Virus record (IMG/VR): IMGVR_UViG_3300023179_007765
Coordinates: 1 to 59,062 of that record
Source: a virus
Lineage: Duplodnaviria; Caudoviricetes
Direction: 5' to 3' (one strand)
Length of the DNA: 59,062 nucleotides
This document shows, piece after piece, positions 1 to 58,719 of the stretch. The notes under the pieces were generated by a model, which saw nothing but the letters and a program-made list of their open reading frames with translations, was not told the origin of the DNA and made no database searches. Every line of letters starts with the position of its first letter. Position 1 is the first letter of the stretch. A program made the position numbers and the translations under genes.

Positions 1-2419
1 TGCTGCGCCGACCTACTCGCTGAGCGCTAACAAGAGCGTCGCAACCGAAGGCACCTCGACCACCTTCACCGCCACTCGCACCGGCGACACCACCAGTGCC
101 GTCACGCTGGTCTACAACATCGTCGGCGACGACAACAGCGGCACCGTTACCAAGGCTACCCCGGGCACCGACACCGACGTCGCTTCGGGCACCGTGACCA
201 TCGCTGCTGGCGCCACCACCGGCACCTTCACCGTCTCGGCCACCTCGGACACCTCGGTCGAAGGCCTCGAAGGCGTCAAAGTCTCGCTGTTCGCCGACAC
301 CACCGTCGTCGCTACGCGCTCGCTGCTGCTCAATGACGACCCGACCGTGGTTCCGGCCCAGACTTTCACGCTCACTACGGGTGCGGACAATTTCACGGGC
401 ACTTCCGGCAACGACACGATCAACGCATTCATTGGTGCGGCCAACAGCACCCTGACTGGCGCCGACATTATTGACGGCGGTGCGGGCACCGACACTCTGA
501 ACCTGAATACCGATAACACCGGCACTCTGTCTGCAGCATCTATCACCAACGTTGAGATCTTCAAGATTCGTGACGTTGGCGCGGCTGCGACCTACAACTT
601 CGCAACTGTTTCCGGTGAGAACTCTGTCATCAACAACATCAGCACTTCTGCGGTGACTCTGAGCGCGATGGCTGCTGGTACGGCGCTGACCATTAAAGGT
701 GACGGTACGACGACCAACGGTGCAACCACCTTCACTATGGCTGCCGCGACCGACGCCGTCAATCTGACCATCGATGGTGGCGTGACCGCTGGTGCCATCA
801 CTCGCAACGCCACTGGCGCTGCGACGGTTACAGTGAACTCTACCGGCGCTGCCAACACCATCGGTGTTCTGGATCTGGATACTGCTACTGCGGTCAAGGG
901 TCTGACCATTAATGCAGCGACTAACCTGACCGGCAGCTTGGCGGCTGACTATGCTGCCAGCTCTTCCCTGACCGTGACTGGTGCGGCCACTAAGGTTGAC
1001 CTGAGTGGCGCAGCCCTGTCGGCCAACATCACCAAGGTTGATGCTTCTGGCATGACCGCTGGCGGCGTGCTGGTCGCAGTTGATCAGACCGACACCACGG
1101 TGGATACCCAGTTTATTGGTGGCGCTGGCAACGATACGCTGGATATCGGTAAGGTTGTTTACAACAGCACAACCCTGACTGCGGCCGGTGGCAATGGCAC
1201 TGACACCCTCAAGATGTCTGACCAGGCTGCCCTGACCTCGACCACTGCCAAGTACATCTCCGGCTTCGAAACCCTGAGCCTGTACGACGACAACGACGGT
1301 GCGCTGGATACCTTCGACGCATCTCTTCTGTCTGGCATTACCGGCGTGTCGCTGGCTGCTGACTCCGCTGGCGACGGCTATGCTGTGACCAACCTGTCGG
1401 CCGCCCAGGCTGCCAACATCACCATCACTGGCAGCAACAACAACGTCGGCCCGACCCTGACCATCAAGGACGCCACCACGGTGGGCAACCTCGACACCCT
1501 GAGCGTTGCGATCAACGACGGTGCTACTGCGGTCAGCACCCTGACCTTGGCCAACCTGACCTCGGCTGGCGCGGAAACCATCAACTTCGCGCTGACGGAC
1601 AACCTGACGCTGTCCTCTGCCACGGGTCTGACGGCTCTCACCAAGATTGGCGTGACCGGTGCCGGCGCACTGAACCTGACCACTGGTGCTCTGGCGCTGA
1701 ACGTGAACTCCACCATCGACGCTTCGGCCTCTACCGGTACCGTGACGATCGACGCATCTGCTGGCACCACCAACGGTCTGGCCATCAAGGGCTCGTCCAC
1801 CAAGGCCAACACCATCACCGGTACCAACCAGGATGACGTCATCACCGGCGGCACTGGCGTGGATACGGTGAAGAACCAGGCCAACGCCGCGACCGACAGC
1901 GACACTGTGGACTTCGTGTCTGACAGCGCAGCTGACATCTTCGAAGTCACCACCCTGACCGGCAAGACCACCATCACCAACTTCGACGTGGCCACCACGA
2001 CCACCACCGAAGACTTGGTGAACGTGTCGAATGACAGCGCTGACGGCGCTGAAACGCAGATCACCGCAGCCGCCGCTCAAGCTTTGATCGGTAGCGACAA
2101 GACCATCGTGATCGAGCAGACCGTCGGTGCTGCAGCGTCTCTGACGACCGGTGGTACTGCCACCCTGGCCGCAGCTGACTTCACTGCTGCGACGTTGACC
2201 AACGTGGCTGCGTTCCTGAGCGAGCGCTTCACGGGCGACAACGACACGTTGGCTGATGAGACTGCCGTGATCATCATGAACAACGGCACGAACAGCTACA
2301 TGTATGCCTATGCTGACTCGACGACCGCCAACACGACGATTGACGCTAGTGAACTGACCCTGATCGGTGTGTTCAACGGCGCCATCCTGAACGCTGGCGA
2401 CGTCTACCAGACGGTCTAA
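1..2419 (+). CDS. RsaA-like S-layer / RTX-type surface protein, 5' end outside the window; Calx-beta-like segment (1..~350) followed by a Thr/Ala/Gly-rich beta-helical region
   Basis: Frame open from position 2 (gct gcg ccg acc tac...) to TAA at 2417-2419; TLTTGADNFTG motif, GGxGxD Ca-binding nonapeptides (GGAGTDTL, GGAGNDTL, GGNGTDTL, GGTGVDTV), T/A/G/D-rich composition, type I secretion-like C-terminus. Confidence 0.85.
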   Translation, partial: AAPTYSLSANKSVATEGTSTTFTATRTGDTTSAVTLVYNIVGDDNSGTVTKATPGTDTDVASGTVTIAAGATTGTFTVSATSDTSVEGLEGVKVSLFADTTVVATRSLLLNDDPTVVPAQTFTLTTGADNFTGTSGNDTINAFIGAANSTLTGADIIDGGAGTDTLNLNTDNTGTLSAASITNVEIFKIRDVGAAATYNFATVSGENSVINNISTSAVTLSAMAAGTALTIKGDGTTTNGATTFTMAAATDAVNLTIDGGVTAGAITRNATGAATVTVNSTGAANTIGVLDLDTATAVKGLTINAATNLTGSLAADYAASSSLTVTGAATKVDLSGAALSANITKVDASGMTAGGVLVAVDQTDTTVDTQFIGGAGNDTLDIGKVVYNSTTLTAAGGNGTDTLKMSDQAALTSTTAKYISGFETLSLYDDNDGALDTFDASLLSGITGVSLAADSAGDGYAVTNLSAAQAANITITGSNNNVGPTLTIKDATTVGNLDTLSVAINDGATAVSTLTLANLTSAGAETINFALTDNLTLSSATGLTALTKIGVTGAGALNLTTGALALNVNSTIDASASTGTVTIDASAGTTNGLAIKGSSTKANTITGTNQDDVITGGTGVDTVKNQANAATDSDTVDFVSDSAADIFEVTTLTGKTTITNFDVATTTTTEDLVNVSNDSADGAETQITAAAAQALIGSDKTIVIEQTVGAAASLTTGGTATLAAADFTAATLTNVAAFLSERFTGDNDTLADETAVIIMNNGTNSYMYAYADSTTANTTIDASELTLIGVFNGAILNAGDVYQTV
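368..417 (+). repeat. Putative attL core inside the S-layer gene; direct repeat of 56173..56222
   Basis: acgctcactacGggtgcggacaaTttcacGggcaCTTcCggcaacgacac versus acgctcactacTggtgcggacaaCttcacCggcaGCAcAggcaacgacac: 43/50 identical, first 11 nt perfect, same reading frame. Confidence 0.7.
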
Positions 2420-2468
2420 GCGCTCTTCTTGGAGCTATCCTCCGGGCTTGGCCCGGGGGTGACCTTCG

Positions 2469-2502
2469 AAACCGCTCCCCTCAAAAGGAGCGGTTTTTTT
2501 TT
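2469..2502 (+). terminator. Rho-independent terminator after the S-layer gene
   Basis: aaaccgctcc-cctcaaaa-ggagcggttt stem followed by a T run. Confidence 0.85.
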
Positions 2503-3046
2503 GAAATTTTCCCGTTGAAACCGACATGACTACGCTGAAGTTCCAGAACCGCCTTGCCAAGTTGATGAAAGCAGGTGATGTGCAGACGGTGCATCACGAA
2601 CTGGCGCGGCTACCGCTGAAGGAGGCGCTGAACTTCAATCTGCTTCAGTCGTGGGTGGAAATTCTGTCGTGCACGGGTATGGCCTCCGTGCAGTCGGCAT
2701 TGCGAGGCGCACGCACGGGCCGGTTAAGCGTGGCTGAGCGCACGATCGTCAATTCGTTTTTGGCCGTGGAGCATTGGTTGCAGCAGGATTGGCAGCGCCT
2801 GGAGTCGCTTGTCGCCGCCTCGCTGGGGCAGGCCAAATACGAAGTTGGCGGCAAGGACGTGGTCAATGCGCAGAGTCATATGAAGCTGTGCGTACGCTTG
2901 TTTGCCTACCGCTTGCAGCATCCGGCCGACTATGGGCGCCATGCCGCCCATTCACTGATCGCGATCGGCGATTCGCATTGTCTGGTACCGGCGGGGCGTA
3001 CCATTCAGTGGGGTGGTCGCCAGGTCGGTGTGTCGACCTCCCCTGA

Positions 3047-3880
3047 TCAGGTCCACGCATAACTAGAGGTTTCTGGGTTGTGGAACTGGCGGTACTCGAC
3101 GGGTGTGAGCCCGTCGAGGGCGTTGTGAGGGATCTCCTCGTTGTAGTCATGCAGCCAGCGCTCGGTGTGTTCCCGGACCTCGGTCAGGTTGCGGAACACG
3201 TACATATCGAGCACGCCTTTGCGGTAGCTGCCGTTGAAACGTTCGATGAAGCCGTTCTGCATCGGTCGGCCGGGTTGGATGAACTCGAGTTGAACGCCTT
3301 TGGCTTCCGCCCACTCGGCCAGCGCAATGGCGACGAACTCGGGGCCGTTGTCCAGCCGCAGTCGCTCCGGATAGCCGCGCCAGGCAGCGATCCGATCCAG
3401 TGTGCGGATGACCCTGCCAGCGGGAAGGTTCAGGTCTACCTCGACCGCCAAGGCCTCGCGGTTGTAGTCATCGACGACATTGAAGGTGCGGAATCTGCGG
3501 CCATCCCACAGCGCATCTGACATGAAGTCGCCGGACCAGCACGCGTTGACTCGCTCGCCCACAGCCAGGGGTTGCGGGTGCCGCGAGGGAATCCGCTTCT
3601 TGCCGCGCCGGCGACGATTCAACCGCAGCTCGCAGTACACCCGATACACCCGCTTGTGATTCCAGTTGAGGCCGCGTCGCCGTATCAGCAGGAACAGCTT
3701 GTCGAAGCCACGCTCCGGAAACCGCTCCGCCAGCTCCAGCAACACCGCAATCACTTCATCGTCCCGGTCCGGCCGACGCTCATAGCGCGCCACCGACCGC
3801 GACAGACCCACCGCCTCACAGGCCCGGCGCTCGCTGAAACCATGCTGTTCTCGCAGCATCTGCACCAGCGGGCGCTTCAT
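3047..3880 (-). CDS. IS3 transposase OrfB (DDE/rve integrase core)
   Basis: WSGDF, DNGPEF, PMQNGFIERFNG motifs. Confidence 0.95.
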   Translation of the reverse strand: MKRPLVQMLREQHGFSERRACEAVGLSRSVARYERRPDRDDEVIAVLLELAERFPERGFDKLFLLIRRRGLNWNHKRVYRVYCELRLNRRRRGKKRIPSRHPQPLAVGERVNACWSGDFMSDALWDGRRFRTFNVVDDYNREALAVEVDLNLPAGRVIRTLDRIAAWRGYPERLRLDNGPEFVAIALAEWAEAKGVQLEFIQPGRPMQNGFIERFNGSYRKGVLDMYVFRNLTEVREHTERWLHDYNEEIPHNALDGLTPVEYRQFHNPETSSYAWT

Positions 3881-3888
3881 CGCCGGGC

Positions 3889-4155
3889 CTACAGCTTTTT
3901 TGCGATGACGTCCTTCAACGCCGTCACCTCCAAAGCCAGATCGGCATACATCCGCTTGAGCCGGCCGTTCTCCTCTTCCAACTCGCGCAGCCGCCGAACG
4001 TCCGAGGCCTCCATGCCCCCGTACTTCGACTTCCAGACGTAATACGTCGCGTCCGATATCCCCAACTCCCGACAGACATCCTTGACCTGCCGGCCACCTT
4101 CCACCTGCTTCAGGGTCTGGACAATCTGACTCTCACTGAACTTGCTCTTGCGCAT
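3889..4155 (-). CDS. IS3 transposase OrfA (HTH), with an A6G -1 frameshift site at its end
   Basis: MRKSKFSESQI...YYVWKSKYGGM...KKL; minus strand reads gcaaaaaagctgtag. Confidence 0.93.
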   Translation of the reverse strand: MRKSKFSESQIVQTLKQVEGGRQVKDVCRELGISDATYYVWKSKYGGMEASDVRRLRELEEENGRLKRMYADLALEVTALKDVIAKKL

Positions 4156-5491
4156 CGCGGGCCTCCCAGGGCGTAGTTTGCCCAGAAGACTCCAGCGATC
4201 CACGGACCTAATTTACGGGAGGTCGACAGGTGTGCAATCGATGCCGATCCGTGGCATCAAGATGTTTCATTTGGGTCTGGGAGTGCCGGCCAAGTACCGC
4301 GCATACTTTCGTGAGCGTCTCAGGCAACTGCCCGCTGACGCCGATGTGCTACTGTCGATCGGGGAGATCGACTGTCGCCCCAATGAGGGCATCTTTTACA
4401 CGGCGCACAAGGATGCTGGCCGTGACTTGAAGGCGTTGCTTGAAAAGACGGTCGCCGATTTCGTGACGTATGTTCACGACGAAATTCGTTTGAGCGGCGC
4501 GGCCTTGCGCAGCGTGACTCTCCAGGGCGTGCCCTGGCCGGCGTACGAGATTGCCAACCGTTTACCTGCAGGCACGGATGAGGCCACCTTCTTTGCCTTC
4601 ATCGACAAGGTCAACGAGGTGATGCAACGGGAGGCGCAACGGGCAGGCTGGCAGTTTCTGGACGTGAAGACGCCTACGGGGCAGAACGCCGGTGGGGGCG
4701 CGCCTGAATTGCGTCTTGACGATATCCATCTGTCACCCTGTTTCTATGATCAGGCCGATCAGTGGCGCAGGGATGTGAGTGGCCTAGGCCGCGATGATGT
4801 CAAGCTGGTATCGACCAGCAGTCATCCGTCACAGGCGGCCGAACAGAGCCCTACTTTTCTGCATGTCGATTGTGGTCAGACGCGAAAAGCCGGAACCACG
4901 CCAGAGTTCAGTCGACCCACATGGAAGGAGTTGCGCCAAGACAGCGATCCGGGAAACCAACCCGACATCATCGGCAGCGTGGTGGACATGAGCCGCGTGC
5001 CCCAGGGTTCTGTGAACGCCATATTTTCAAAGAATGACATAAACCGGCTGTACCCACAACAAGTGGAATCGGTATTACAGGAATTTTTGCGTGTGCTGAC
5101 GCCAGATGGCTATCTGGTGATCAGTTGCCCCGACCTCAAATCCATTTGCGCCTTGGTGGCGCAAGACCGCCTGACGGAACCGGTGGGGAGGGATGAGCAC
5201 GGGCCGTTGGCACCCCTGGACCTGATTTATGGAAACCGCGCAAAACTCAGCACGGGTGACCAGTCGGCGGCTTTCAAGTGCGGTTTTACAGCAAATGTGC
5301 TTGCTGGAACGCTCAATGCGGCGGGTTTTCAATCGATCGCCGGTAAGGTGAGAGATCGCGCGCCATTTTTTGATATCTGCCTCGTTGCTAGCAAGCAGGC
5401 GATGGAGGATTCCGAGATCAAGAAACTTGTGGGCTTGCACTTTCCCGACTGATAAAAATTAAAAACTCTTCCCCATCAGAGGCAATAACCA

Positions 5492-7027
5492 ATGACTGAC
5501 TGGACTGCTGGCTACGTGGCCGATATTGGCTATACCTTTGGCTATTACACCGAATTGAATCCCCAGCGAGTCAAACTCGCGTTTCTTAACCAGGGACTGG
5601 TATTCCCGGAAATGTGGACTGGCTGTGAACTCGGCTACGGTCAAGGGCTGTCTGCCAACTTTCACGCGGCGGCATCGGTTACCCAATGGCACGGCACGGA
5701 CTTCAATCCCAGCCAAGCGGGTTTCGCACAAGAATTGGCTGCCGCTTCTGGTGCCGGCGCCAAGCTCTACGACGAAGCCTTTGCCGACTTTGCCAACCGA
5801 GCCGATCTCCCCAACTTCGACTACATCGGCCTGCACGGCATCTGGAGCTGGATCTCTGACGAGAACCGCACCGTCATTGTCGACTTCATCCGCAAGAAAT
5901 TGAAGGTTGGCGGCGTGCTCTACATCAGCTACAACACCCTGCCGGGCTGGGCCAGTTTCGCCCCGATGCGCCACCTGATGACCGAACACGCCGAAGTGCT
6001 GGGTGCCGAGGGTAAGGGCATCGTCAGCCGCATCGACGGCGCCATCGACTTTGCCGAGAAACTGCTCGCTACCAACCCGACCTTCAGTCGTGCCAACCCG
6101 CTGGTGGGCGACCGGCTCAAGAAGATGAAAGAGCACAACCGCCACTACCTGGCGCACGAGTACTTCAACCGTGACTGGCACCCCATGCACTTCGCCACCA
6201 TGGCGGAGTGGCTGGAAGGCGCCAAGGTGCAATACGCCTGCTCTGCGCATTACCTCGATCACATCGAGGCCGTGAATCTCACCACCGAGCAGCAGGCCTT
6301 TCTCAAGGACATCCCGGACCCGATGTTCCGCGAGACCACCCGCGACTTCATGGTCAACCAGCAATTCCGTCGTGACTATTGGGTCAAGGGTGCCCGCAAA
6401 CTGAACGCACTCGAACAAGCTGAAGCCTTGCGGGCACAGCAGGTCATCCTCGTCGCCCATCGCCCGGATGTGTCGCTGAAAGTGACCGGGGCATTGGGTG
6501 AGGCCGACATGAGCGAGGCTGTCTACGCACCCATTCTCGATCTGCTTGCTGACCACAAGGCCAAGTCCCTCGGTCAGATCGAGCAAACGGTCAAGGACAA
6601 GGGTATCGCCTTCGCCCAGATCATTCAGGCGGCCATGGTGCTCACCGGAGCTGGGCATCTGGCCCTGGTGCAGGACGAGCAGGTGATCACCAAAGCCAAG
6701 AAGCAGACCGACAAGCTCAACGCCCACCTGTGCCAAAAGGCGCGGGGCAGTAATGACATCAGCTACCTATCCAGCCCGGTCACCGGCGGCGGCATTGCCG
6801 TCAACCGCTTCCAGCAGCTCTTCCTGATGAGCCTCGCGCAGGGCAGGAAGCAACCTGCGGAATGGGCGCAATACGCCTGGAGTGTGCTGTCCGTGCAGGG
6901 GCAGCGCCTGGTGAGGGAAGGGAAGACGCTGGACACTGCCGAGGACAATCTCGCAGAACTGGTAGCACAGGCGCAGACGTTCGCCGAGAAGCAGTTGCCG
7001 ATTCTGCGAGCCTTGCAGGTTACTTGA
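5492..7027 (+). CDS. Class I SAM-dependent methyltransferase with a methyltransferase regulatory domain
   Basis: ELGYGQG SAM motif, FDYIGLHGIWSW, YNTLPGW, YLAHEYFN, NQQFRRDYW. Confidence 0.88.
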   Translation: MTDWTAGYVADIGYTFGYYTELNPQRVKLAFLNQGLVFPEMWTGCELGYGQGLSANFHAAASVTQWHGTDFNPSQAGFAQELAAASGAGAKLYDEAFADFANRADLPNFDYIGLHGIWSWISDENRTVIVDFIRKKLKVGGVLYISYNTLPGWASFAPMRHLMTEHAEVLGAEGKGIVSRIDGAIDFAEKLLATNPTFSRANPLVGDRLKKMKEHNRHYLAHEYFNRDWHPMHFATMAEWLEGAKVQYACSAHYLDHIEAVNLTTEQQAFLKDIPDPMFRETTRDFMVNQQFRRDYWVKGARKLNALEQAEALRAQQVILVAHRPDVSLKVTGALGEADMSEAVYAPILDLLADHKAKSLGQIEQTVKDKGIAFAQIIQAAMVLTGAGHLALVQDEQVITKAKKQTDKLNAHLCQKARGSNDISYLSSPVTGGGIAVNRFQQLFLMSLAQGRKQPAEWAQYAWSVLSVQGQRLVREGKTLDTAEDNLAELVAQAQTFAEKQLPILRALQVT

Positions 7028-7037
7028 GCGAGAGTCG

Positions 7038-7235
7038 ATGAGCACTTTCTACCAGCGACACAATCAAGGTCTGATGGAAGTCATCACAGCCCTGCTGGGT
7101 GAGCCTGAGGAGGGTGAGCCTGTGGTCACTGCCGCCACGTTCTTCACCGTGAGGGAGGAGGGCGAGGAGGTGGTGGTGACGCTCACCGGCGTGCCCGAAC
7201 TGGTCGACCCGACATGGGGCGTGATCTTTGACTGA
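7038..7235 (+). CDS. Small acidic hypothetical protein
   Basis: 65-aa ORF closely following the methyltransferase, with a purine-rich RBS. Confidence 0.5.
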   Translation: MSTFYQRHNQGLMEVITALLGEPEEGEPVVTAATFFTVREEGEEVVVTLTGVPELVDPTWGVIFD

Positions 7236-7315
7236 AGCCACCTGCGGGTGGCTTTTTCAATGGCTAAAGACAAGATGGAAAAACGTTCAGGTATGGGCTA
7301 CTTGCGCGATACATA

Positions 7316-7364
7316 TTGACGACAGAACATTCGTTCTCATACAATCATTCAGAACAAATGTTCT
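7316..7364 (+). promoter_or_regulatory. Sigma70-like promoter with two AGAAC-N4-GTTCT operators
   Basis: TTGACG 7316-7321, TACAAT 7340-7345 (18-bp spacer); palindromes agaacattcgttct 7324-7337 and agaacaaatgttct 7351-7364. Confidence 0.8.
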
Positions 7365-7374
7365 TGAATATGAA

Positions 7375-7959
7375 ATGAACGAACGCGATCCTGATTACCT
7401 GGCTGCACTGCAGCGTTACTACGCCGACGAGCACGCTTTCCCGTCCTATGACAAGTTACTGCCTGTCCTGGGGGTGGCAGCACGCTCGGCGGTCAAGACC
7501 ATCCTCGAGCGCCTGGCCAAGCAGGGTTTTCTCGAAAAGAACGGCGATGGCGTCTGGATTCCGGCCAAGCGTTTCTTTGAGCGCCCCCTGGCGGAATGCG
7601 CCGTCCAGGCAGGCCTGCCGACCGAAGTGGCGGACGTGGCCACGCAGCCGTTTTTCCTCGACGAACACCTGATCGACTCGCCGGCGGATACGCTGCTGAT
7701 TCGGGTCAAGGGTGACTCGATGAAGGACGCCCACATCGATGACGGCGACCTGGCCGTTGTCGATACCGCCCGCAGTGCCTCGGTAGGGGATTTCGTGGTG
7801 GCCCGCGTCGACGGTCAGTTCACGCTCAAGGAGTTGGTGATCGAGAACGGCCGCAGGGCGCTGAAAGCCCACAACCCGGCCTATCCCTTGATCGTGCCCA
7901 AAGGCGAACTGGACATCGTGGGCGTGGTGATCGGCTTGACCCGAAAGATCGCGCGCTGA
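7375..7959 (+). CDS. LexA/UmuD-like self-cleaving repressor (N-terminal wHTH plus S24 peptidase)
   Basis: VQAG cleavage site, VKGDSM (catalytic Ser), FTLK (catalytic Lys), N-terminal FPSY...LERLAKQGFL helix-turn-helix. Confidence 0.9.
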   Translation: MNERDPDYLAALQRYYADEHAFPSYDKLLPVLGVAARSAVKTILERLAKQGFLEKNGDGVWIPAKRFFERPLAECAVQAGLPTEVADVATQPFFLDEHLIDSPADTLLIRVKGDSMKDAHIDDGDLAVVDTARSASVGDFVVARVDGQFTLKELVIENGRRALKAHNPAYPLIVPKGELDIVGVVIGLTRKIAR

Positions 7960-7998
7960 CGTTGGTTTCATCGCAAAACCAATAAAAAAAAAGGAGAC

Positions 7999-40043: not shown

Positions 40044-40250
40044 ATGACCCAGGAGCGCACGCCGCGCGGCTATCCGCTGCCGCATCCCGAGCACCTGCTG
40101 TCTGAAGACGTTCTGAACCTGCGTGAGGCCCTCACCCGCATCGATGCGGATGTGGCCGTGCAGGAGGCGTCCACCCAGCAGGGGCAAGACCAACTCACCG
40201 AACGGCTGCACCGCCAGCACCTGCGGGTGTTTCACCAGTTCGGCTTTTAA
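40044..40250 (+). CDS. Small tail-fibre-associated protein
   Basis: TPRGYPLP...LREALTRID. Confidence 0.6.
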   Translation: MTQERTPRGYPLPHPEHLLSEDVLNLREALTRIDADVAVQEASTQQGQDQLTERLHRQHLRVFHQFGF

Positions 40251-50364: not shown

Positions 50365-50879
50365 ACGCCATCGATACGATCCTCGACGACATCATGCGCC
50401 GGGAAGGCGGCTACGTGAATCACCCCGCCGACCGGGGTGGGCCAACGAACTTCGGCATCACCGCGCAGACGCTGGGTAGCTGGCGCAAGCTGGGTCGTCC
50501 GGCCACGGCCGCAGAGGTGCAAGCACTGACTGAAACCGAGGCCCGCGCCATCTACCGTCAGCAGTACATCACCGATCCCGGCTTTGAAGTCATCACCCAT
50601 CCGGCACTGCTGCATCTGCTGGTGGACGCCGGCGTGCATTCCGGGGCGAAGCGGGCGGCGCAATGGCTGCAGGCAGCGCTCGGCGTTGCTGCCGATGGCG
50701 TGATCGGTCCCAAGACTCGCGCAGCACTGGCGGCCACCGACCAAGGTGTGCTCTATGGCAAGGTGCTGGGACAGCGCCTGCGCCATCTCGGACGCCTGAT
50801 CACCAACGACCCCAAGCAGTCAGCGTTCGCCGCTGGCTGGATGAACCGGATGGCCGAATTCGTGGAGGGCACGGTATGA
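50361..50879 (+). CDS. Endolysin, glycoside hydrolase family 108
   Basis: EGGYVNHPADRGGPTNFGIT, DGVIGPKT, GWMNR. Confidence 0.92.
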   Translation: MNAIDTILDDIMRREGGYVNHPADRGGPTNFGITAQTLGSWRKLGRPATAAEVQALTETEARAIYRQQYITDPGFEVITHPALLHLLVDAGVHSGAKRAAQWLQAALGVAADGVIGPKTRAALAATDQGVLYGKVLGQRLRHLGRLITNDPKQSAFAAGWMNRMAEFVEGTV

Positions 50880-51304
50880 CTCCGCTACTCACCACTTTGG
50901 CGCCTGGCTTGCTGGAAGCGGGAAGCCGCCTGATCGACCGCCTGGTGCCGGACCCCGCCGAGCGGGAGAAAGCCAAGCTCGCGTTACTGCAGGCGGAAGG
51001 GCAACTGGCGCTGCAGGAGATGCAGACGAGTCTCTCCGCGATCCTGGCTGAAGCCAACTCAGCCGACCCTTGGACCAGCCGGGCGCGGCCGACCTTCCTG
51101 TACGTCATCTACGGCGTGATCCTGCTGTGTGTGATGGGCGCCATCATCGGCATCTGGTGGCCGACGCACGTCTTCCAGGCTGCGGAGAACCTCAACAAGC
51201 TGCTGGGTGCGGTGCCCGAGAGCCTGTGGTGGCTCTTCGGTGCTGGCTACCTCGGCTACACCGGGGCGCGCAGCTTTGACAAGTGGCGTGGGCCAGTGCG
51301 CTGA
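50876..51304 (+). CDS. 3TM-type holin family protein
   Basis: LIDRLVPDP...WTSRARP...GYLGYTGARSFDK. Confidence 0.8.
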   Translation: MTPLLTTLAPGLLEAGSRLIDRLVPDPAEREKAKLALLQAEGQLALQEMQTSLSAILAEANSADPWTSRARPTFLYVIYGVILLCVMGAIIGIWWPTHVFQAAENLNKLLGAVPESLWWLFGAGYLGYTGARSFDKWRGPVR

Positions 51305-51338
51305 CCGGTGCTGCCGCGCACGACAACCTCAAAAGACG

Positions 51339-51387
51339 ATCCCCCGATCTCACTGCCTTCACCGGTGGTGGGGTCGGGGGATTTTTG
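51339..51387 (+). terminator. Terminator after the lysis cassette
   Basis: atcccccgatctcac...gtggggtcgggggat followed by tttt. Confidence 0.7.
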
Positions 51388-51525
51388 CGTTTGTGGTGTC
51401 CGAGACTTCGTAGCGTTGAACGGTTCTCATTGAATTCGTGTCAACCATAGTGTAAACTGACAACCCCTGTGACAACCAGGGCGACAGCTTTCTAGGCAAC
51501 CAACCAAAGGAGAAAACGCGTGAAA

Positions 51526-52314
51526 ATGACCAAAGCGCCTGTTTATTACGCACTGGCTCAAGCGCAGTTTAATCCTGTGGCTGCCATGGCAAAGTACGTC
51601 GACGAGATTCAAGACATCCTGCGCCGGGAGGGGTATACCCTTTTTGAGCCGCAAGAAATCACGCAACTGCAGTTCGTGGGGGCTGCTGGACAAGCGCCGG
51701 CTAATCCCGAGCTAATGAAAGTTACCAATTGGCTGATTTCAAAGGCTGATCGGACTGCTGGCTTTATTTTGGGCTCATCCTCTCTGGCCTACCACACAAC
51801 TCATTATGAAACTCGGAACGAGTTCTTGCCGGAGTTGGTGCAGGGATTGCAAGCTGTTCACAAGGTGGTTTTTCTAGATCACATTGCTCGACTGGGTTTG
51901 CGTTATCTCGATGCGGTGATTCCCGGCGAAGACGAGCAGGTTTCGCAGTATTTGGCTGATGGTTTGCAGGGCGTGACATTCGGCGCAAAGCAGCGTTACG
52001 CGATGAGCGAGTCTGTTTTTGAGACAGAAACAGGGCCACTGGTGAAATCAGGGACTTTGGTTGCGCGCGTTTATCGTGCGACATCTCCTCTTGGTTATCC
52101 GCCCGATCTGATTCCTCACGGGCTTCAGCCAATGCCTCGCTTCCAGAGGAGCGACACGATCTCCCACGCTGTGATTGATACCGATCACTATGTTGAAGGC
52201 AGAATGCCTATTGATTTTGAGCAGATCAAGGCACAGTTGGCGTCGCTGCACACGGGGATCAAGCAATCTTTCGAGGCAACTATTACGTCTTACGCTGCAG
52301 AAGTCTGGCGCTGA
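51526..52314 (+). CDS. TIGR04255-like protein
   Basis: KAPVYYALAQAQF, RLGLRYLD, VIDTDHY. Confidence 0.7.
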   Translation: MTKAPVYYALAQAQFNPVAAMAKYVDEIQDILRREGYTLFEPQEITQLQFVGAAGQAPANPELMKVTNWLISKADRTAGFILGSSSLAYHTTHYETRNEFLPELVQGLQAVHKVVFLDHIARLGLRYLDAVIPGEDEQVSQYLADGLQGVTFGAKQRYAMSESVFETETGPLVKSGTLVARVYRATSPLGYPPDLIPHGLQPMPRFQRSDTISHAVIDTDHYVEGRMPIDFEQIKAQLASLHTGIKQSFEATITSYAAEVWR

Positions 52315-52331
52315 TTAGAGGAGGGTTGGAT

Positions 52332-52955
52332 ATGTATGCAAACCACACTGTGGGTATAAATCCACGACTGCCATTGCGCAGCGTTGCACAGACCGCTTTT
52401 GTTGTGATGCTTGTAGGAACTGGCAGTGTTTATGCAATGGATCGCTTGGACACGTGGCGACCGCACCTTCAACACCGAGTTCCGTTTATTCCGGAAGCAG
52501 GTGTTCAGAGTAATGGTTCTGAACGGATTGATGTTCGTACTCCGCTTGAGCATCTTGAAAATATCCGCACGGTATTGAACCCTGCTGTTTCAGACTTGGC
52601 ATCCGTATTTGATGTTTCACGACAGGCTATTTACAAGTGGTTATCGAACGACTCGAAGCCAGAGGCTGAAAAGTCAGCTCGTGTGCAGGCGCTCAGTCAG
52701 ATCGCAGATGCTTTCAAAGAAGCCGGCGTAGCACGTGCTGGCAGCCTTCTCAAAATGAAGACCTTTGGTGACCGGTCTCTCATGGACATCGTAAGGGCCG
52801 GAGATGATTGGCATGAGGCCGTGGATGCCCTGATTGCCGAATCGCGTGCGATGGAGCGTGCCTATGAGCGGTCTGGACTGGCCAAATCCAAGGCAAAGCC
52901 AACTTCAGATTGGCAGACCTCTCAGTCAATTCCCGCGTCGCGCGAAGATGTGTAA
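52332..52955 (+). CDS. HTH-containing protein (Xre/antitoxin-like)
   Basis: SDLASVFDVSRQAIYKW helix-turn-helix. Confidence 0.65.
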   Translation: MYANHTVGINPRLPLRSVAQTAFVVMLVGTGSVYAMDRLDTWRPHLQHRVPFIPEAGVQSNGSERIDVRTPLEHLENIRTVLNPAVSDLASVFDVSRQAIYKWLSNDSKPEAEKSARVQALSQIADAFKEAGVARAGSLLKMKTFGDRSLMDIVRAGDDWHEAVDALIAESRAMERAYERSGLAKSKAKPTSDWQTSQSIPASREDV

Positions 52956-52964
52956 GGGAGAACT

Positions 52965-53816
52965 ATGCTCGGACGTGACACGCCTTGGAGGCAGGGCAGC
53001 GTAATTGCCCAGGCGGACGCCATCGCGGCCGGCTTATTCGATGAGACTTCCTCGAGCCTCAAACGGGCTCTTGTCATTACGCACGACTGTGATCTGACGA
53101 ATGACAGAGAGCTCGAAGTCGAGGTTATGGTCGGAAATGTGGTCGACAAGCTGAACAAACAGTTCGCTCGTGCCCGTAATGTTCGGCGCCTCCACTTGGC
53201 ATTCGATACGCCGTCTGGCAACCAGCAGTTTATTGACCTGCAGATAACCGCCAAGCAATCCATCTCCAAATCTCTGATCGCCGGCTCCAAGCCAGACGGT
53301 GGCTGGGTCCTGTCGGACGAGGAGAAACGATCCCTCAAGCAGTGGCTGGCAGCACGCTATGGTCGCCCAGCTTTTCCGAACGCGTTTGAGACGCATCTTC
53401 GCAAAAATGTCAGCAAGAAAGAGACGGTAGAGGATCGACTCGGGAAGGTCCTTGAAAAAGTGAGCGCCCATTTGGTCGGGGTGTTTTTTGACTTGGGTGA
53501 AAACCGCGCTGCCGAGCTCACGGATGGATCGCCTTACGACCTGAGGATTACTGTTGTCTATGACGCGAGTGAAGGTGGACAGCCTGCGAGGCTGGCTGCT
53601 GAAGAGGTGGTCTCTGAGATTCGGGATATTTTCCAATCGGCTTATGGTCCTCCAGAGGCAGCAACTGAGATCGCGCTGGAATCTTGCGAAGCAGTTGCAG
53701 ACCTTCGCTTCCCACTATCGGATCTGCGCAAAGTGGATCAATGGCGTGCCGAATACATCAGCCTGCGCCAGGACCCTCCAGAGTCGTTCCTGGCTGTTGG
53801 AGAGCTGCCAGCGTAA
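52965..53816 (+). CDS. Hypothetical protein (WRQG...VITHDCDL family; possible toxin or nuclease)
   Basis: 283-aa ORF with RBS; WRQGS, ITHDCDL, WLAARYGRPAFP. Confidence 0.65.
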   Translation: MLGRDTPWRQGSVIAQADAIAAGLFDETSSSLKRALVITHDCDLTNDRELEVEVMVGNVVDKLNKQFARARNVRRLHLAFDTPSGNQQFIDLQITAKQSISKSLIAGSKPDGGWVLSDEEKRSLKQWLAARYGRPAFPNAFETHLRKNVSKKETVEDRLGKVLEKVSAHLVGVFFDLGENRAAELTDGSPYDLRITVVYDASEGGQPARLAAEEVVSEIRDIFQSAYGPPEAATEIALESCEAVADLRFPLSDLRKVDQWRAEYISLRQDPPESFLAVGELPA

Positions 53817-54316
53817 TGGCATCAGGGGTAACTGAAGTTCTGGGCATCACCTGCGCGGGGCACTTTTGGCAAGAAGTGGTGCTTCCGAACGCGGTGCATT
53901 ACCGCCAGCATCCTACGGCCAGGGAGGCGTTCAACTTGGCTGCGTCGTTATGGCACTTGATCGACTGGGTCTTCGAGGACCCGCGTCTGAACTCGCAGCA
54001 CCAAGAAAAGAAAGCTCTACAGACCAACCTCCGACAGCAGTGCCCGGCACTGGGTGTGATGCACGACATCACCACGCTGTACAAGCACGCTCGAATGACC
54101 AGGCCGCAAGGGAATGTGATGGCTACGGATGTGGAGATGCTGGGGGCAACGTTCTACTTCGGTCCAGGTGGTCCTGTTTCCGAACATCCAGGTGAGTACG
54201 TCGTGACCTTGGAGGGAGGGGAGCAGCGCCCATTGAACGAATTGTTCGATGAGGCGCTGAAATTTTGGGACGGCTACTTCCGCGCTGATGCGGCGGGTCA
54301 GCAGGTCACGCTATAG
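53816..54316 (+). CDS. Hypothetical protein, HEPN-like helical family
   Basis: ATG overlaps the previous TAA; AFNLAASLWHLIDW...HDITTLYKH. Confidence 0.55.
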   Translation: MASGVTEVLGITCAGHFWQEVVLPNAVHYRQHPTAREAFNLAASLWHLIDWVFEDPRLNSQHQEKKALQTNLRQQCPALGVMHDITTLYKHARMTRPQGNVMATDVEMLGATFYFGPGGPVSEHPGEYVVTLEGGEQRPLNELFDEALKFWDGYFRADAAGQQVTL

Positions 54317-55517
54317 CCGCCACCTGAGGTGTGCCAGTGTTGGCTGCGACTGGCCGCCGCCCCACGACATTCCCCACCACATTGACCGCCTCCAGCATCG
54401 CCTGCGGCGACAGGTGCGCGTAGCGCATCGTCACCTTCGGATCGTGATGACCCAGGAGCTTTTGCACCTCGTACAGCGACCGCCCAGCGTTGACCAGGAA
54501 ACTGGCGTAGCTGTGGCGCAGGTCGTGCAGCCGCACTTCCTCCAGCCCGACTTTCTTGCGGATCGAGTCCCAGGCGTAGAAGATCGACACCGGAGGCTTC
54601 TTGGTCTTGGGGTTAAAGAACACCCAAGGGATGTCGTCCTGCCGGGGCAGCGACAGCAGCAACTCAATGGCCGCATCCGAGAGCGGGATGTGGCGCGGCT
54701 TCTTCGACTTCGACCGTGCCGCCGGCACCGTCAGCATCCGGCGATTGAAATCGATCTCGTCCCACCGGGCATCCAGGATCTCCCGCTTGCGGGCACCGGT
54801 GTAGAGCAGCAGCCGGATCACCTGGCCCACCTGCACATTGCGGTTGGTGTCGAGTTCATCAAACAGCCGCTGCACCTCGTCGGTCGTCAGGTAACGCTCC
54901 CGGGCGCCGTGGTCCTCAAAAGGCTCTACCCCATCGCAGGGGTTGCTTTTGGGCGGCAGGATGTCCCAGCGGATCGCGCAGTTGTAGATGAACTTCATCA
55001 GCACGATCATCCGGTTGCAGGTCCCGGCCGCGTAGCCCTTCTCGAACACCGCGTGGTGGAAGGCCACCACATCGGAGCGGGTGATGCGGTTCATCCGAAA
55101 CTCGGCAAACACCGGCAGGAGGTGGTTGCGCAGCATCGTCTCGTCTGTCTCCCAGCTGCGCTTGCGGGTCTTGGCGTAGGGCAGATAGCGCTCGGCCACG
55201 AAATCCCCGAAGGTCGGTACATCCTTGAAGCGATGACTCTCCACCTTGGGGTCGCCACCCTCGGTGACCATCTGCTTCATCTTGTGCGCTTTGGCCCGGG
55301 CGTCCGACACCGAAATCTCGTCAGAGCGGCCAATCCGATTCAGCCGCACCTTGCCGGCGGCGTCGCGGTAGCGGAAGTAAAAGGTGGCGCCGCCGCTGGC
55401 CCGATGCTCCAGCAGGAAGCCCTTGATCTCCGTATCGAAGTAACTCACGGCCCCGGAGGCAGGCTCGCGACCTGGCAATGTGGCCAGGAATTCGGTCGTC
55501 AACGCTTGTGCTGGCAT
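54306..55517 (-). CDS. int: Tyrosine integrase with an N-terminal arm-binding domain
   Basis: YFDTEIKGF arm-binding domain; TGARKREI (R), KSK (K), HDLRH (HxxR), LGH, RYAH (Y). Confidence 0.95.
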   Translation of the reverse strand: MPAQALTTEFLATLPGREPASGAVSYFDTEIKGFLLEHRASGGATFYFRYRDAAGKVRLNRIGRSDEISVSDARAKAHKMKQMVTEGGDPKVESHRFKDVPTFGDFVAERYLPYAKTRKRSWETDETMLRNHLLPVFAEFRMNRITRSDVVAFHHAVFEKGYAAGTCNRMIVLMKFIYNCAIRWDILPPKSNPCDGVEPFEDHGARERYLTTDEVQRLFDELDTNRNVQVGQVIRLLLYTGARKREILDARWDEIDFNRRMLTVPAARSKSKKPRHIPLSDAAIELLLSLPRQDDIPWVFFNPKTKKPPVSIFYAWDSIRKKVGLEEVRLHDLRHSYASFLVNAGRSLYEVQKLLGHHDPKVTMRYAHLSPQAMLEAVNVVGNVVGRRPVAANTGTPQVAAIA

Positions 55518-55627
55518 CGTCGTGCTCCTCTATCTATTGAGGGTCATGCTACGATACAATGCGCCGGAAAGGACATAAAAAGCGTCTAATAGACCGGAAT
55601 ATTTACCTACCCAAAAAGGAGTCGACC

Positions 55628-55879
55628 ATGATCGACGGAAGACAGATCCGCGCCGCACGCGCGATGCTGGGCTGGAGCCGGGACGACCTGCTCAAGGCCT
55701 CGGGCATCTCGATGTCAGCGCTGCTGCGCATGGAAGGGGCACTGGCCGACAGCCGGGGCTCCACACTCAACAAGGTGGCCAAGGCCCTGACCCTGGCCGG
55801 CATCGAATTCGTCACTCGGGATGACGGGGCGATTGGCGTGATCCTCAAGGCACAAAATCCGCCCGATGCGCCACAATGA
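55628..55879 (+). CDS. XRE-family HTH regulator, divergent from the integrase
   Basis: QIRAARAMLGWSRDDL...GIEF. Confidence 0.88.
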   Translation: MIDGRQIRAARAMLGWSRDDLLKASGISMSALLRMEGALADSRGSTLNKVAKALTLAGIEFVTRDDGAIGVILKAQNPPDAPQ

Positions 55880-55908
55880 GCACAGCATCCCGAGCACCCC
55901 AAAAGGCA

Positions 55909-55945
55909 CAAAGGCCACCTGATGAGACACATTGGGTGGCCTTTG
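55909..55945 (+). terminator. Hairpin after the HTH gene
   Basis: caaaggccacc...ggtggcctttg 11-bp stem. Confidence 0.6.
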
Positions 55946-55963
55946 CACTAGATGGCTTCGGTT

Positions 55964-56140
55964 GGTAGGTAGTTTGTACGTCTGATTGGCTGCAAATTGC
56001 GTCTATATAGATAGGTGACACGGCTAAGTCTTTGAAAAGACAAAGGAAATATCCGATCAGAATGAAAATATGCCTTTTGCGGTAGGAAAGTGGTAGGAAG
56101 TGGGCGCTTCGAGGGCTTCAAAACGCGCGTAAGTCTTTGA
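55964..56140. promoter_or_regulatory. Putative attP-derived arm: integrase arm-type and IHF-like sites
   Basis: GGTAGG at 55964, 56081 and 56092 (GGTAGGAA tandem with 11-bp period); TAAGTCTTTGA at 56025 and 56130, resembling the IHF consensus YAANNNNTTGATW. Confidence 0.6.
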
Positions 56141-56163
56141 CTTATAAAGGGATTGCGGAGTAG

Positions 56164-58719
56164 CTGGCTATTACGCTCACTACTGGTGCGGACAACTTCA
56201 CCGGCAGCACAGGCAACGACACCTTTTTCGCCTCTTTGGTGTTTGCTGCTGATGAAACAGTTACAACAGCTTCACAGTTGTCAGTCGCTGATATTTTGGC
56301 CGGCGGAGCAGGTACTGACACACTCAACATCGTAATTTCTGGCTTACAAGATGCCGCCGTTACTGTTCCTGTGGCTTCTACTTCAGCTATGGAGACAATT
56401 AACATCCGCAACACTGTCGCTCAGGAAGCAACCTATGCTGCTACGAACGGCTTAACAACTGCTGCCTCAGATCGTTCTACTGGTGCGGTAGTTTTTTCTG
56501 GTCTTGCAGCTGGCGCAGTCGGCAGCGTCATCGGTGATGGTGTTGTTACAAACGGCGCATCAACCTTTGGATACGCTGCTACTGTTACATCCGGTACGGT
56601 TAATTTCTCAGGTGGAACCTTAGGAACACCTGTCGTTACTACTTCAGGAACACTCCTCGCTACCCAAACCGTTAACTCAACTGGAGCTGCAAACGTAACC
56701 GGCGCAATGACACTGGGTGCAGCTGTTACAACTTTGAACGTCAATGCTACAACAGCCTTGACAACAGGTGCTGTGACCAACACAGGCGGTGCAGCTTTGA
56801 CCAGAATCAACGTTACTGGTTCGGGCGCAGTTAGCTTGTCTGCTACCCCATTGGAAGCAACTGTTACAACCATTGATGCATCAGCTGCTACTGGTGCTTT
56901 GACTGTTGCATTGGGTTCTGCTGTTACACAAACAGTTACTGGCGGTACAGGTAACGACGTGATCACAACTGGTGCTGTTCTGACAACTGGTTCAGTTAAC
57001 GCTGGTGCAGGCACCGACGTTCTGGACGTCGGTACTAACGTTGCACACGTCAATACTTCAACCTTGGCTGCAAAGTACACAAACTTTGAAACAGTACGTA
57101 TTGGTGCGGCTGCTTTGGATATGTCCTTGATTGGCGGTATCAATGCAGTTCAATTGACAGGCGCTGCAACATTGACCAACATGACAGCTACCCAAGCTGC
57201 TGCAGTTACAGCTCGTGCAAACATTGGTAACGCAAGTCTGGCATTGGCAACTGCAACTGGCACATCGGACGTCTTGACCATTACAAACGGTTTGGGAACT
57301 ACGACGGCAGCTGCCACCACAATCGGCACACTGGTTGCTACAGGTTTTGAAACAATTAACCTCGCAGCAAACCCTGGCCCAACAGCCACATCAGGTGCAA
57401 ACCGTACTACAACGGTTACAGCGATCACTGATACATCATTGACCGCTGTCAATTTGACTGGTACTGCATTCACTTTTGGTGATATCGCTTCTACAAAGGC
57501 AGTTGCTTGGAATGCTTCAGCATTGACAGGTAACGGTGCTTCTACTCCAGTCGGTTTGACCTTGACCACAACTGGTGCAGCATTCGCCGGCTCTACTGTT
57601 ACTGGTTCCGCTCTGCGCGATTCGGTGATCATGGACTCTTCGACAGGTGTTACCTTTAACTTGGGTGCAGGCAACGACATCTTCTCGACAACATCAACAC
57701 TGCTGTTGCCATCAGGTGCTGCTACCGATAACACCATCAATGCTGGTGAAGGTGCTACTGACCGATTGGTGTTCACAGGTGCAGCAACTCTGACAGACAC
57801 ATCCTTCATCAAAACTTCCGGTTTCGAAGCTTTGGAGCTGGCAGGTGCTGGTGTTGCTAACAGTGTGACTGGTTTGGCCGCTGGTTTCTTGACAGGTTTC
57901 GCAGGTGGCGTAACTGTTACTGATACTGCTGCACAGACAGGTGCAAATGCATACACTTGGTCTTCTGGTTTGTATGCACAGCCAGTGACATTGACTCATG
58001 AGACTACATATGCCGGTACAGCTGCTGCTGGTAACCAAACCATTACAACTGGCGCAGGTAACGATACGATTACTGTGATTGCTTCGTCATGGGTTGGTGT
58101 TGCTGCTGGTACAGGCGCTACGATTGCAGTCAGTACTGGTGCAGGTAACGATACGATTACTGTTACTACTGGAACGCAGCTTGCACAAACTACAACTGCT
58201 CCTGTTGTGATTACGGGCGGTTTGGGTGCTGATACGATCACATCGTCGGGCGTCAACATCACAACTGGTGCTGGCGTACTGACAACAACATATGTGATTG
58301 CTGCTGGTGACTCTACGACAACTGCTTACGACTCAATCACTGGTTTTGACCTTGGAACTGCCGCACTTTTGCCTTCAACTCTGGACTTGGTAGGTACTGG
58401 TGCTGTTACCACTTATGCAGCAACTGCACCAACTGGCTACACAGCAGCTCAATTGACAGTTGCAGTTACTGCAACTTCTGGTTTGGTAGTTTTTGCGGGT
58501 ACAAGCGCCTCTGCATTGACTTTGGCAGAAAAAATTGCAGCAGTTCAATCAGTTGTTACAACCAACACCACTGACTTGGCAGTATTCACTCATGGTGCAA
58601 ACTCCTATGTGTTCCAAAACAACACAGCTGGAGACATCGTAGTTGAATTGGTTGGTGTTGCCGCAACAAACATCATTGTTGCCAACGCTAACGTTGCAGG
58701 TAGTGTCTTGGTGCTCTGA
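56164..58719 (+). pseudogene. 5'-truncated, start-less 3' half of a second RsaA-like S-layer gene (848 sense codons from the repeat)
   Basis: In-frame TAG at 56161-56163, then LAI-TLTTGADNFTGSTGNDTF... open to TGA at 58717-58719; GGxGxD repeats; no convincing RBS/ATG; codons strongly A/T-ending. Confidence 0.85.
56173..56222 (+). repeat. Putative attR core; direct repeat of 368..417
   Basis: 43/50 identity; lies at the boundary between the phage right arm and the start-less S-layer half gene. Confidence 0.72.

Follow-up and report, generated by a model that had tools for sequence, protein, structure and literature searches.

Can a temperate phage exchange the outer half of a bacterial surface-layer (S-layer) gene by integrating into it? 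We asked this question for a DNA stretch of 59,062 nucleotides from lake water (IMG/VR record IMGVR_UViG_3300023179_007765), hereafter called the window, in which a prophage appeared to be flanked by two different S-layer 3' halves. An earlier note had proposed that the phage integrates inside the gene at a short in-frame repeat and delivers a different 3' half.

To examine whether the repeat is real, we compared the two flanks directly. Positions 368-417 and 56173-56222 share 43 of 50 nt, whereas the neighbouring 50-nt blocks share only 6-18 of 50 in ungapped comparison, and the pair heads the list of direct-repeat families in the window (55 nt, 84%). The 9-mer ACGCTCACT (codons T-L-T) occurs exactly twice, at 368 and 56173. 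One-mismatch copies (18) are at the chance level, with 20 matches in all against 15.3 ± 3.5 expected. Among 40 distinct cassette starts in the loci retrieved for comparison, mean pairwise identity is 26.6 of 50, and about 1% of pairs reach 43 of 50. The likeness is therefore above what the protein motif alone usually gives, but it is not unique, as other cassettes match the left copy at 41-42 of 50. The repeats are 55,805 bp apart, both junctions are in frame, and a complete tailed prophage lies between them. The features of the locus are as follows.

2-367 (+), 5' part of the resident S-layer gene, cut by the contig end, Calx-beta-like (122 aa), GC 0.66, in an open frame continuous with 368-2419.
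368-376 (+), attL core ACGCTCACT; the minimal shared core is GCTCACT (370-376).
368-2419 (+), element-borne S-layer 3' half (683 aa, RTX repeats, Pfam HemolysinCabind), fused in frame to the resident 5' part.
2468-2497 (+), terminator-like hairpin after the left half (11-pair stem plus T run).
2526-7027 (+), cargo block with orf2526, an IS3-type transposase remnant (3047-3880, minus strand), orf4142 (weak GDSL and methyltransferase matches) and a methyltransferase (5492-7027) with a regulatory domain.
7316-7959 (+), repressor module with the promoter TTGACG-18-TACAAT (7316-7345) and a CI-like S24 peptidase gene (probable start 7375).
10683-49964 (+), phage replication, packaging, head and tail modules (PHROGs: primase, DNA methylase/ParB, large terminase, portal, protease, major head protein, tail proteins, tape measure).
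50663-51304 (+), holin with three transmembrane segments (Pfam GTA_holin_3TM, E 3.5e-23).
54306-55517 (-), tyrosine integrase with an arm-binding N-domain (Pfam Phage_integrase, Arm-DNA-bind_3 and SAM-like domains; motifs TGARK, HDLRH, LGH and RYAH present), starting 656 bp from the right repeat.
55628-55879 (+), small HTH (XRE-type) regulator (Pfam HTH_31/HTH_3), 72-100% conserved next to the integrase in relatives.
55950-56172 (+), integrase-side att arm, AT-rich (GC 0.44), with the repeated motifs TGGTAGG(A/T)AGT (55963, 56091) and TAAGTCTTTGA (56025, 56130).
56173-56181 (+), attR core ACGCTCACT.
56173-58719 (+), displaced, start-less S-layer 3' half (848 aa), GC 0.49.
58778-58806 (+), terminator-like hairpin after the right half (12-pair stem).
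58936-59062 (+), start of a repeated, higher-GC insertion, probably an IS, which cuts the small gene beginning at 58833 and ends the contig (GC 0.58 against 0.44 just before; contig depth jumps and many loose ends appear at 58935/58936).

The designation of both halves as S-layer parts is an inference. It rests on the RTX repeats, on a hit of the right half to the RsaA lattice domain (5N97, E 1.8e-7), and on homologues named "S-layer protein" or DUF4214 by their sources. The two halves are 40% identical over their first ~346 aa and unalignable beyond that. The left gene is an ORF (2-2419) that is open at its 5' end. In the right gene, a TAG at 56161 is the fourth codon upstream of the motif, no ATG, GTG or TTG precedes 56236, and no sigma-70-like site was found in 55400-59062, against 2.7 expected. 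Judged from the sequence alone, there is thus no sign that the right ORF is expressed independently.

To test whether integrases of this type are consistently associated with split S-layer genes, we examined 24 loci with integrases at least 79% identical. Of these, 16 reach a core, and 15 of the 16 run in frame into a start-less S-layer-like ORF, with 13 distinct cassettes ranging from 29 aa (cut by a contig end) to 1382 aa. One locus (L022) shows a non-S-layer sequence after the core. A stop codon within 5 codons upstream is present in 14 of the 16. The arm is nearly invariant in 9 aligned relatives, and similarity stops at GCTCACT. Three further integrase lineages (42-56% identical) likewise run into start-less S-layer halves, so that four lineages use the same site. 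No arm-type motifs lie on the cassette side of the core.

We next searched for the two halves in other contexts. The right half occurs as an intact gene behind a DUF4214-like N-part in three loci (L086-L088), with 92% nt identity and with homology that starts exactly at 56173 and runs to 58935. These genes resemble natural attB sites. All 11 other loci with N-parts of 155 aa or more have no integrase homologue in the locus, whereas the 3 start-less ones (L089, L105, L111) each have one 0.6-3.5 kb upstream. The left half is identical in 683/683 aa to residues 181-863 of P0001, a protein with an unrelated N-part, and identity begins at QTF|TLT. Relatives of the left half with 84% and 74% identity (P0002, P0005) occur as arm-adjacent start-less cassettes. 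No close relative of the left half was found in IMG/VR, and there is thus no direct sighting of arm, core and left half as a free-phage attP. The 5' part is 84-87% identical to the N-parts of the full-length proteins P0097, P0118 and P0121, whose C-parts differ from one another. P0097 and P0118 are identical for 232 aa and unrelated from 5 residues before the joint.

These data also bear on the possibility that the true attL lies further left, off the contig, and that 1-2419 is one longer element-borne cassette in which the motif at 368 is only an internal domain joint. Cassettes that begin at a core with a Calx-beta-like domain do exist (L027 and L058, 1382 aa, aligning to window residues 4-205), and the 5' part is high-GC like the phage, not like the right flank. 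However, identity to P0001 begins only at QTF|TLT, the closest relatives of the 5' part are N-parts of full-length genes that start with Met and switch partner at this same joint, and positions 17-25 match the core at only 5 of 9 positions. We consider this reading unlikely.

The earlier note had named a left end near 7000-7300 as an observation that would contradict its model. In that case the left gene would be an intact native gene, the host would keep start-less spare cassettes downstream, and the phage, carrying no S-layer DNA, would merely have landed in front of one of them. In line with this view, a near-core ACGCTCACC at 7179 is in frame (T-L-T) in the small ORF 7038-7235, the cargo genes 4142-7027 are host-type neighbours of S-layer genes, and homology among four relatives starts at 7316. 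However, one-mismatch cores are at chance frequency, and relatives share no homology around 7179, although their integrase-side arm is 80-95% conserved. Position 7316 is simply the -35 box of the repressor promoter. On the + strand, GCTCACT occurs left of the phage genes only at 370. In two related contigs, G004 (L065, 10.5 kb) and G006 (L058, 10.1 kb), the only core is at the cassette start, while the relatives L057, L059 and L061 have none upstream of the repressor. In L057, not even a relaxed core is present in the 3.3 kb between the methyltransferase end and the repressor. As P0001 moreover shows that 368 is a real recombination joint, a left end next to the repressor appears improbable.

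G004 repeats the whole architecture on one contig. Behind its left half come an AbiH defence gene and an M78-peptidase-like gene (weak match, under the Pfam cut-off), not host genes. Distant homologues stay similar about 100 aa past the core in G004, and this contig therefore gives no independent breakpoint. Tandem arrays (G006, G007, G008) have units bounded by cores. Homologues of the methyltransferase 5492-7027 directly follow intact S-layer genes in three genome loci (L001, L002, L005), and this conserved host pair fits capture from an attR flank.

To look for recombination products, we inspected Logan contigs of four runs. No attP or attB junction of this lysogen was seen, although contigs cannot show rare forms, and its competence for excision is therefore unproven. 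The attR junction is bridged by independently built contigs in 4 of 4 runs, one of which may be the source, whereas the attL junction of the window rests on this one assembly. An assembly chimera, in which two S-layer alleles were joined at the shared motif, is nevertheless very unlikely. S-layer alleles share up to ~23 nt here, which is far shorter than usual assembly k-mers, and G004 shows the same layout independently.

We also considered that the architecture is real but a fossil or a passenger, i.e., that the S-layer half is hitch-hiking DNA from an aberrant excision with no selected role, or that the prophage can no longer excise. Cassette exchange would then be driven mainly by ordinary homologous recombination at the conserved joint, and modular S-layer evolution by homologous recombination is documented (10.1101/2025.04.02.646754). 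The lack of observed excision products, the IS remnants in the cargo and at the right flank, and a truncated tandem copy in the contig G009 are compatible with this view. On the other hand, all 3 contigs that show the left end carry a full-length, uninterrupted cassette, each a different one, four integrase lineages keep the same target, and the phage and integrase genes look intact. Identity outside the core is only 9-23 nt, which is short for RecA-type exchange. We regard this alternative as unlikely.

The base composition calls for one correction of the earlier note, which had inferred that excision would reverse the change. GC and GC3 are 0.66/0.85 for the 5' part, 0.60/0.73 for the left half and 0.49/0.36 for the right half. 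The right half is probably not the ancestral partner of this 5' part, and the history is more complex than one integration. The notion that excision restores the original gene is therefore too simple.

The comparative data otherwise support the model of the note, and we consider the following explanation likely. A 55.8-kb AcaML1-like temperate tailed phage is integrated by its tyrosine integrase inside an RsaA-like, RTX-type S-layer gene. The crossover core of about 7-9 bp (GCTCACT within ACGCTCACT) lies at the joint between the N-terminal part of the protein (anchor, or Calx-beta in this host) and the large C-terminal, lattice-type part. In the circular form of the phage, the order would be integrase, HTH gene, arm, core, start-less S-layer 3' half, methyltransferase-type cargo and repressor, and a stop codon in the arm keeps the cassette silent. 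Integration fuses the cassette in frame to the resident promoter and 5' part and leaves the resident 3' half start-less and promoter-less behind the arm. Presumably, Int-mediated excision would rejoin the 5' part to the right half, and the cassette plus downstream methyltransferase genes were first picked up from the attR flank of a former host by imprecise excision, as in specialised transduction.

The closest isolated phage is Acidithiobacillus phage AcaML1 (JX507079.1). Its large terminase is 94.5% aa identical, its replication and structural genes are collinear over window 10683-49964, and its genome of 59.4 kb is close in size to the 55.8-kb circle. AcaML1 is, however, annotated with other recombinase genes, restriction and IS cargo, and no S-layer piece. 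We found no description of the present arrangement in our literature searches, although related principles appear to be established. Phage 21 and e14 in the E. coli icd gene, and phages in tRNA genes, likewise seem to carry a replacement for the displaced 3' end, but there a short, near-identical copy would preserve the product, whereas here a 683-aa half, at most 40% identical to the displaced 848-aa half, changes it. SXT/R391, with a P4-type tyrosine integrase that targets prfC, probably supplies a new 5' end and promoter for a housekeeping gene, whereas here a silent 3' half is switched on by the resident promoter of a surface-array gene. In cassette switching of surface proteins, such as Campylobacter fetus sap, Lactobacillus acidophilus slpA/slpB and Mycoplasma pulmonis vsa, a constant 5' part with promoter appears to be combined with exchangeable start-less 3' cassettes, in vsa by a tyrosine recombinase at a short in-frame site. 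Those appear to be chromosomal inversions among resident cassettes, whereas here each cassette travels with a phage or island, switching is by integration or excision, and arrays arise by stacking elements. Serotype-converting phages, such as those of Shigella and Salmonella, appear to carry O-antigen modification genes next to int-att, and lysogeny probably changes the cell surface, often the receptor of the phage itself. Those phages seem to add modifying enzymes, whereas here the structural surface protein itself is re-spliced by the integration event, with methyltransferase-type genes riding along and, in the relative G006, a glycosyltransferase.

We infer that the fusion protein is made and exported and changes the exposed lattice. 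Export by the resident machinery is not assured, however, as the C-terminal ends of the two halves, where type I secretion signals would be expected, are unrelated. Becoming a lysogen would probably re-dress the cell surface, which may benefit the lysogen or the phage, for example, by blocking adsorption of phages that use the old lattice.

To define the element that lies between the two S-layer gene halves, we annotated the 59,062-bp record, which is the only contig of its assembly and offers no wider host context. Positions 10683-49964 are collinear with phage AcaML1 (JX507079.1; 59.4 kb) of the extreme acidophile Acidithiobacillus caldus. The large terminases of the two phages are 94.5% identical at the amino acid level, and the collinear modules share 66-84% nt identity, while the integration and cargo modules are entirely different. 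PHROGs and Pfam profiles identified a primase, a DNA methylase/ParB, the large terminase, portal, protease, major head protein, tail proteins, tape measure and holin. The prophage itself is not in doubt. The features needed for the following analyses are:

2-2419, ORF open at its 5' end, carrying the left core at 368 and 683 aa from there to the stop
3047-3880, minus strand, IS3-type transposase remnant
5492-7027, methyltransferase gene
7316-7345, promoter of the repressor gene
from about 7375, CI-type S24 repressor gene
10683-49964, region collinear with AcaML1
54306-55517, minus strand, tyrosine integrase with an arm-binding domain
55628-55879, small HTH gene
55963-56140, region holding the two repeat families of the integrase-side arm
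56173, right core, opening a start-less frame of 848 aa
58936-59062, start of a repeated insertion of higher GC

The integrase matched the Pfam profiles Phage_integrase (6.9e-30), Arm-DNA-bind_3 (4.1e-12) and SAM-like (3.4e-6). The motifs TGARK (240), HDLRH (331), LGH (355) and RYAH (365) are present and probably represent the conserved R / H-x-x-R / H / Y active-site pattern of this P4/SXT-type family. The block between the holin and the integrase (51000-54300) has a lower GC content (0.52-0.56) and contains ORFs without Pfam matches, and it is probably further accessory cargo. At the other end, the repressor promoter is flanked within 7316-7372 by two near-palindromes, AGAACATTCGTTCT and AGAACAAATGTTCT, both of which are invariant or nearly so in five related phages and are likely operators.

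The sequence ACGCTCACT occurs exactly twice, at 368 and 56173, and both copies are read T-L-T in frame. The 50 nt starting at each copy agree at 43 positions, whereas the neighbouring blocks are at chance level. The right frame has TAG as the fourth codon upstream of the core and no start codon before 56236. No promoter-like site was found in 55400-59062, and both halves end with terminator-like hairpins. The halves are homologous but far apart, with 40% identity over ~346 aa and nothing alignable beyond. Both carry RTX repeats (HemolysinCabind). The right half matches Caulobacter RsaA in the structures 5N97 (lattice domain, E 1.8e-7) and 6P5T (E about 2e-7). In contrast, P0001, an 863-aa database protein that contains the left half, gave no PDB hit at E <= 1, so the left half is linked to RsaA only through its 40% identity to the right half. 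NCBIfam profiles gave nothing useful for the S-layer halves or the cargo, and no transporter genes were found among the 20 window ORFs scanned with Pfam.

To examine whether position 56173 marks a phage end, we compared the integrase locus with related loci in IMG/VR. Of the 46 loci found, we analyzed the 24 with at least 79% integrase identity (L007-L030), leaving out 22 that are short integrase fragments or 25-29% relatives. Sixteen of the 24 reach a core, and the other 8 are too short or rearranged. In all 16, the ~290-bp arm between the HTH gene and the core is conserved, and similarity stops at GCTCACT. In 15 of the 16, the sequence runs on in frame into an S-layer-like ORF, giving 13 distinct cassettes that range from 29 aa, cut by a contig end, to 1382 aa. 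In 14 of the 16, a stop lies within 5 codons upstream of the core. In the exception, L022, unrelated, non-S-layer sequence follows the core, but only 131 nt remain, and it could be either an ancestral attP or another target. In L023, L026, L027 and the attL of contig G004, the first core codon is ATG instead of ACG, and a displaced cassette could then in principle be translated from the core itself (M-L-T...). The arm holds two repeat families that are found nowhere else near the ends and are candidate arm-type integrase sites, while no arm-type motifs lie on the cassette side of the core. We conclude that 56173 is a phage end.

We next asked whether the right half is a displaced gene end. A metagenome scan revealed relatives with 92% nt identity as intact genes in loci L086-L088. 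There, a DUF4214-like N-part ending in ...GQTF is joined to TLTT..., and homology to the window begins at 56173 and runs to 58935. From 56 loci found in two searches, we chose 13 with long flanks. Eleven of these have N-parts of 155-553 aa before the joint and no integrase homologue in the locus. The other two, L105 and L111, are start-less and have an integrase 0.6-3.5 kb upstream. A further locus, L089, carries the same cassette family as the right half (96% aa), and it is start-less there too, behind a third integrase lineage (42% identical) and a different arm. On the right flank, a small gene at 58833 (MTTININNVDYD...), which also follows other S-layer cassettes, is cut at 58936 by the repeated insertion. 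The insertion opens with an ORF at 59001, contig depth jumps 4-80 fold here, and the record ends in it.

Several lines of evidence indicate that 368 is a recombination joint and that the left half is borne by the element. P0001 is identical to the left half at 683 of 683 residues, whereas its first 180 aa (DUF4214, which is also on record for many homologues) are unrelated to window 1-367, and identity starts at QTF|TLT. Relatives of the left half with 84% and 74% identity (proteins P0002 and P0005) begin with the arm-encoded peptide ...GEYRAI|TLT and are therefore displaced cassettes in other lysogens. The 5' part of the window is 84-87% identical to the N-parts of the full-length S-layer-type proteins P0097 and P0118. 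These two proteins are identical to each other for residues 1-232 and unrelated afterwards, with the switch 5 residues before the T-L-T joint, which is natural evidence that the joint is a recombination hot spot in the host lineage. No close relative of the left half was found in IMG/VR, so there was no sighting of an attP form.

An alternative left end close to the repressor was also considered. The small ORF 7038-7235 contains an in-frame near-core (ACGCTCACC, T-L-T) at 7179, and a one-mismatch copy of an arm motif lies at 7044 on the minus strand. However, on the + strand GCTCACT occurs only at 370, 37796, 44723 and 56175, leaving no other usable core to the left of the phage genes. In G004 (L065) and contig G006 (L058), the only core in 10 kb is at the cassette start, and the related loci L057, L059 and L061 have none upstream of the repressor. 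Homology among relatives on the left starts at the -35 box of the repressor promoter, not at an att site. We therefore rejected this alternative and judged both motifs to be chance occurrences, although they could be relics of an older att region.

The full layout is repeated on one contig in G004 (55.3 kb), which comprises a Met-start N-part, a QTF|MLT joint, a 700-aa half, an AbiH gene, an M78-peptidase-like gene (weak match, under the Pfam cut-off), the phage, integrase, arm, core and a second half. The AbiH abortive-infection gene (L065 3941-4945; Pfam E 5e-66) lies between the element-borne S-layer half and the phage early genes and is a defence moron beside the att site. A search with the left protein of G004 gave only a partial 97% hit (P0148, which starts at residue 263) and N-part relatives whose similarity runs ~100 aa past the core, which provides no replicate of the P0001 breakpoint. 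In G002, the cassette is followed by a 654-aa minus-strand ORF of unclear kind, which does not distinguish attP from attR. G006, G007 and G008 are stacks in which every unit runs core, cassette, cargo, integrase, arm, core. In G007 (5169-8361) and G008 (36858-40050), a 10-14 kb island with a second integrase lineage sits immediately behind the phage's displaced cassette and carries a conserved set of small genes and variable cargo of unknown function. G009 (L077, 27-10693) holds two copies of the integrase (96-97% aa) that lie 8.3 kb apart. The cassette behind the second copy is followed directly by a tape-measure gene truncated to residues 522-960, and this arrangement looks like a decayed tandem prophage. 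Altogether, four integrase lineages, 42-56% identical to one another, sit at such joints.

To trace the origin of the cargo, we inspected the neighbourhood of intact S-layer genes. In three genome loci (L001, L002 and L005), named in their record titles as MAGs of Polaromonas, Methyloversatilis and Rhodoferax, an intact S-layer gene is directly followed by a homologue (67-77% aa) of the methyltransferase at 5492-7027. The same gene follows the displaced cassette in G001. In the window, this pair lies between the left core and the repressor, which is what imprecise excision taking the attR flank would produce. Thus, the cargo fits a capture of the specialised-transduction type, although the capture event itself is inferred. 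Within 2526-5452, the IS3-type remnant (rve domains) appears to split one gene into orf2526, which ends with a GDSH-type motif, and orf4142, which has weak GDSL-lipase and methyltransferase matches.

The base composition does not fit a simple history. GC and GC3 are 0.66/0.85 for the 5' part, 0.60/0.73 for the left half and 0.49/0.36 for the right half, and the GC content of the phage is 0.635. The intact relatives of the right half lie on contigs of about 0.48 GC. The right half was therefore probably imported earlier, and excision would give a chimera rather than an ancestral gene. Logan contigs of four sequencing runs (X1, X4, X6 and X8), compared with 54000-59062, bridge attR but show no attB or attP form. 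As contigs drop rare forms, this says nothing about excision. One 20-letter loose end at 56171 in X1 matches neither the 5' part nor L086. The two halves have unrelated C-termini, so export of the fusion is an assumption. We are fairly confident in the structural model, even though it, like the S-layer assignment itself, rests on sequence comparison, without read support for the left junction, whereas its functional consequences remain proposals.

Individual parts of this arrangement have apparent precedents. Integration within a gene with an element-borne gene end seems to occur at icd and prfC, but in gene-end-restoring integration of the icd or tRNA type the element's copy probably restores an equivalent product. 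Here, the two halves differ in sequence, in length (683 versus 848 aa) and at their C-termini. Surface conversion by cargo next to att is likewise probably not new. Cassette variation of surface proteins of the sap and vsa type presumably exchanges resident cassettes without a mobile element, whereas every start-less cassette examined here is preceded by an integrase plus arm (the 15 loci, L089, L105, L111 and G006-G008). Modular S-layer evolution by recombination has been reported (10.1101/2025.04.02.646754) without mention of integrases or prophages. In full-text searches, which did not cover subscription-only literature or supplementary files, we found no phage or integrase that splits and re-completes an S-layer gene. 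What appears new is the combination, that is, a phage or island whose integration re-splices an S-layer gene with a different lattice half that is silent until integrated.

A broader reading is possible, but we offer it only tentatively. Temperate phages and small integrative islands of freshwater proteobacteria, with at least four integrase lineages involved, may form a horizontally mobile S-layer exchange system. Each element would carry a silent lattice-domain cassette, often with matching methyl- or glycosyltransferases, that is expressed only when integration splices it onto the resident, presumably anchoring part. Stacking of elements would build arrays of displaced cassettes, excision or further integration would switch the exposed lattice reversibly, and cassettes would move between hosts of very different GC content (0.49 versus 0.66).

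S-layers are the outermost coat and a frequent phage receptor, and their extreme diversity is usually put down to divergence and homologous recombination. If our reading is right, a virus re-tailors the coat protein itself by the act of integrating, and no extra enzyme or regulator is needed, because the cassette stays silent until it is spliced behind the resident promoter and presumed anchor. This would be a new route of lysogenic conversion and, possibly, of superinfection exclusion, a mechanism that spreads lattice types between genera, and a natural example of in-frame domain swapping by a site-specific recombinase at a 7-9 bp site.
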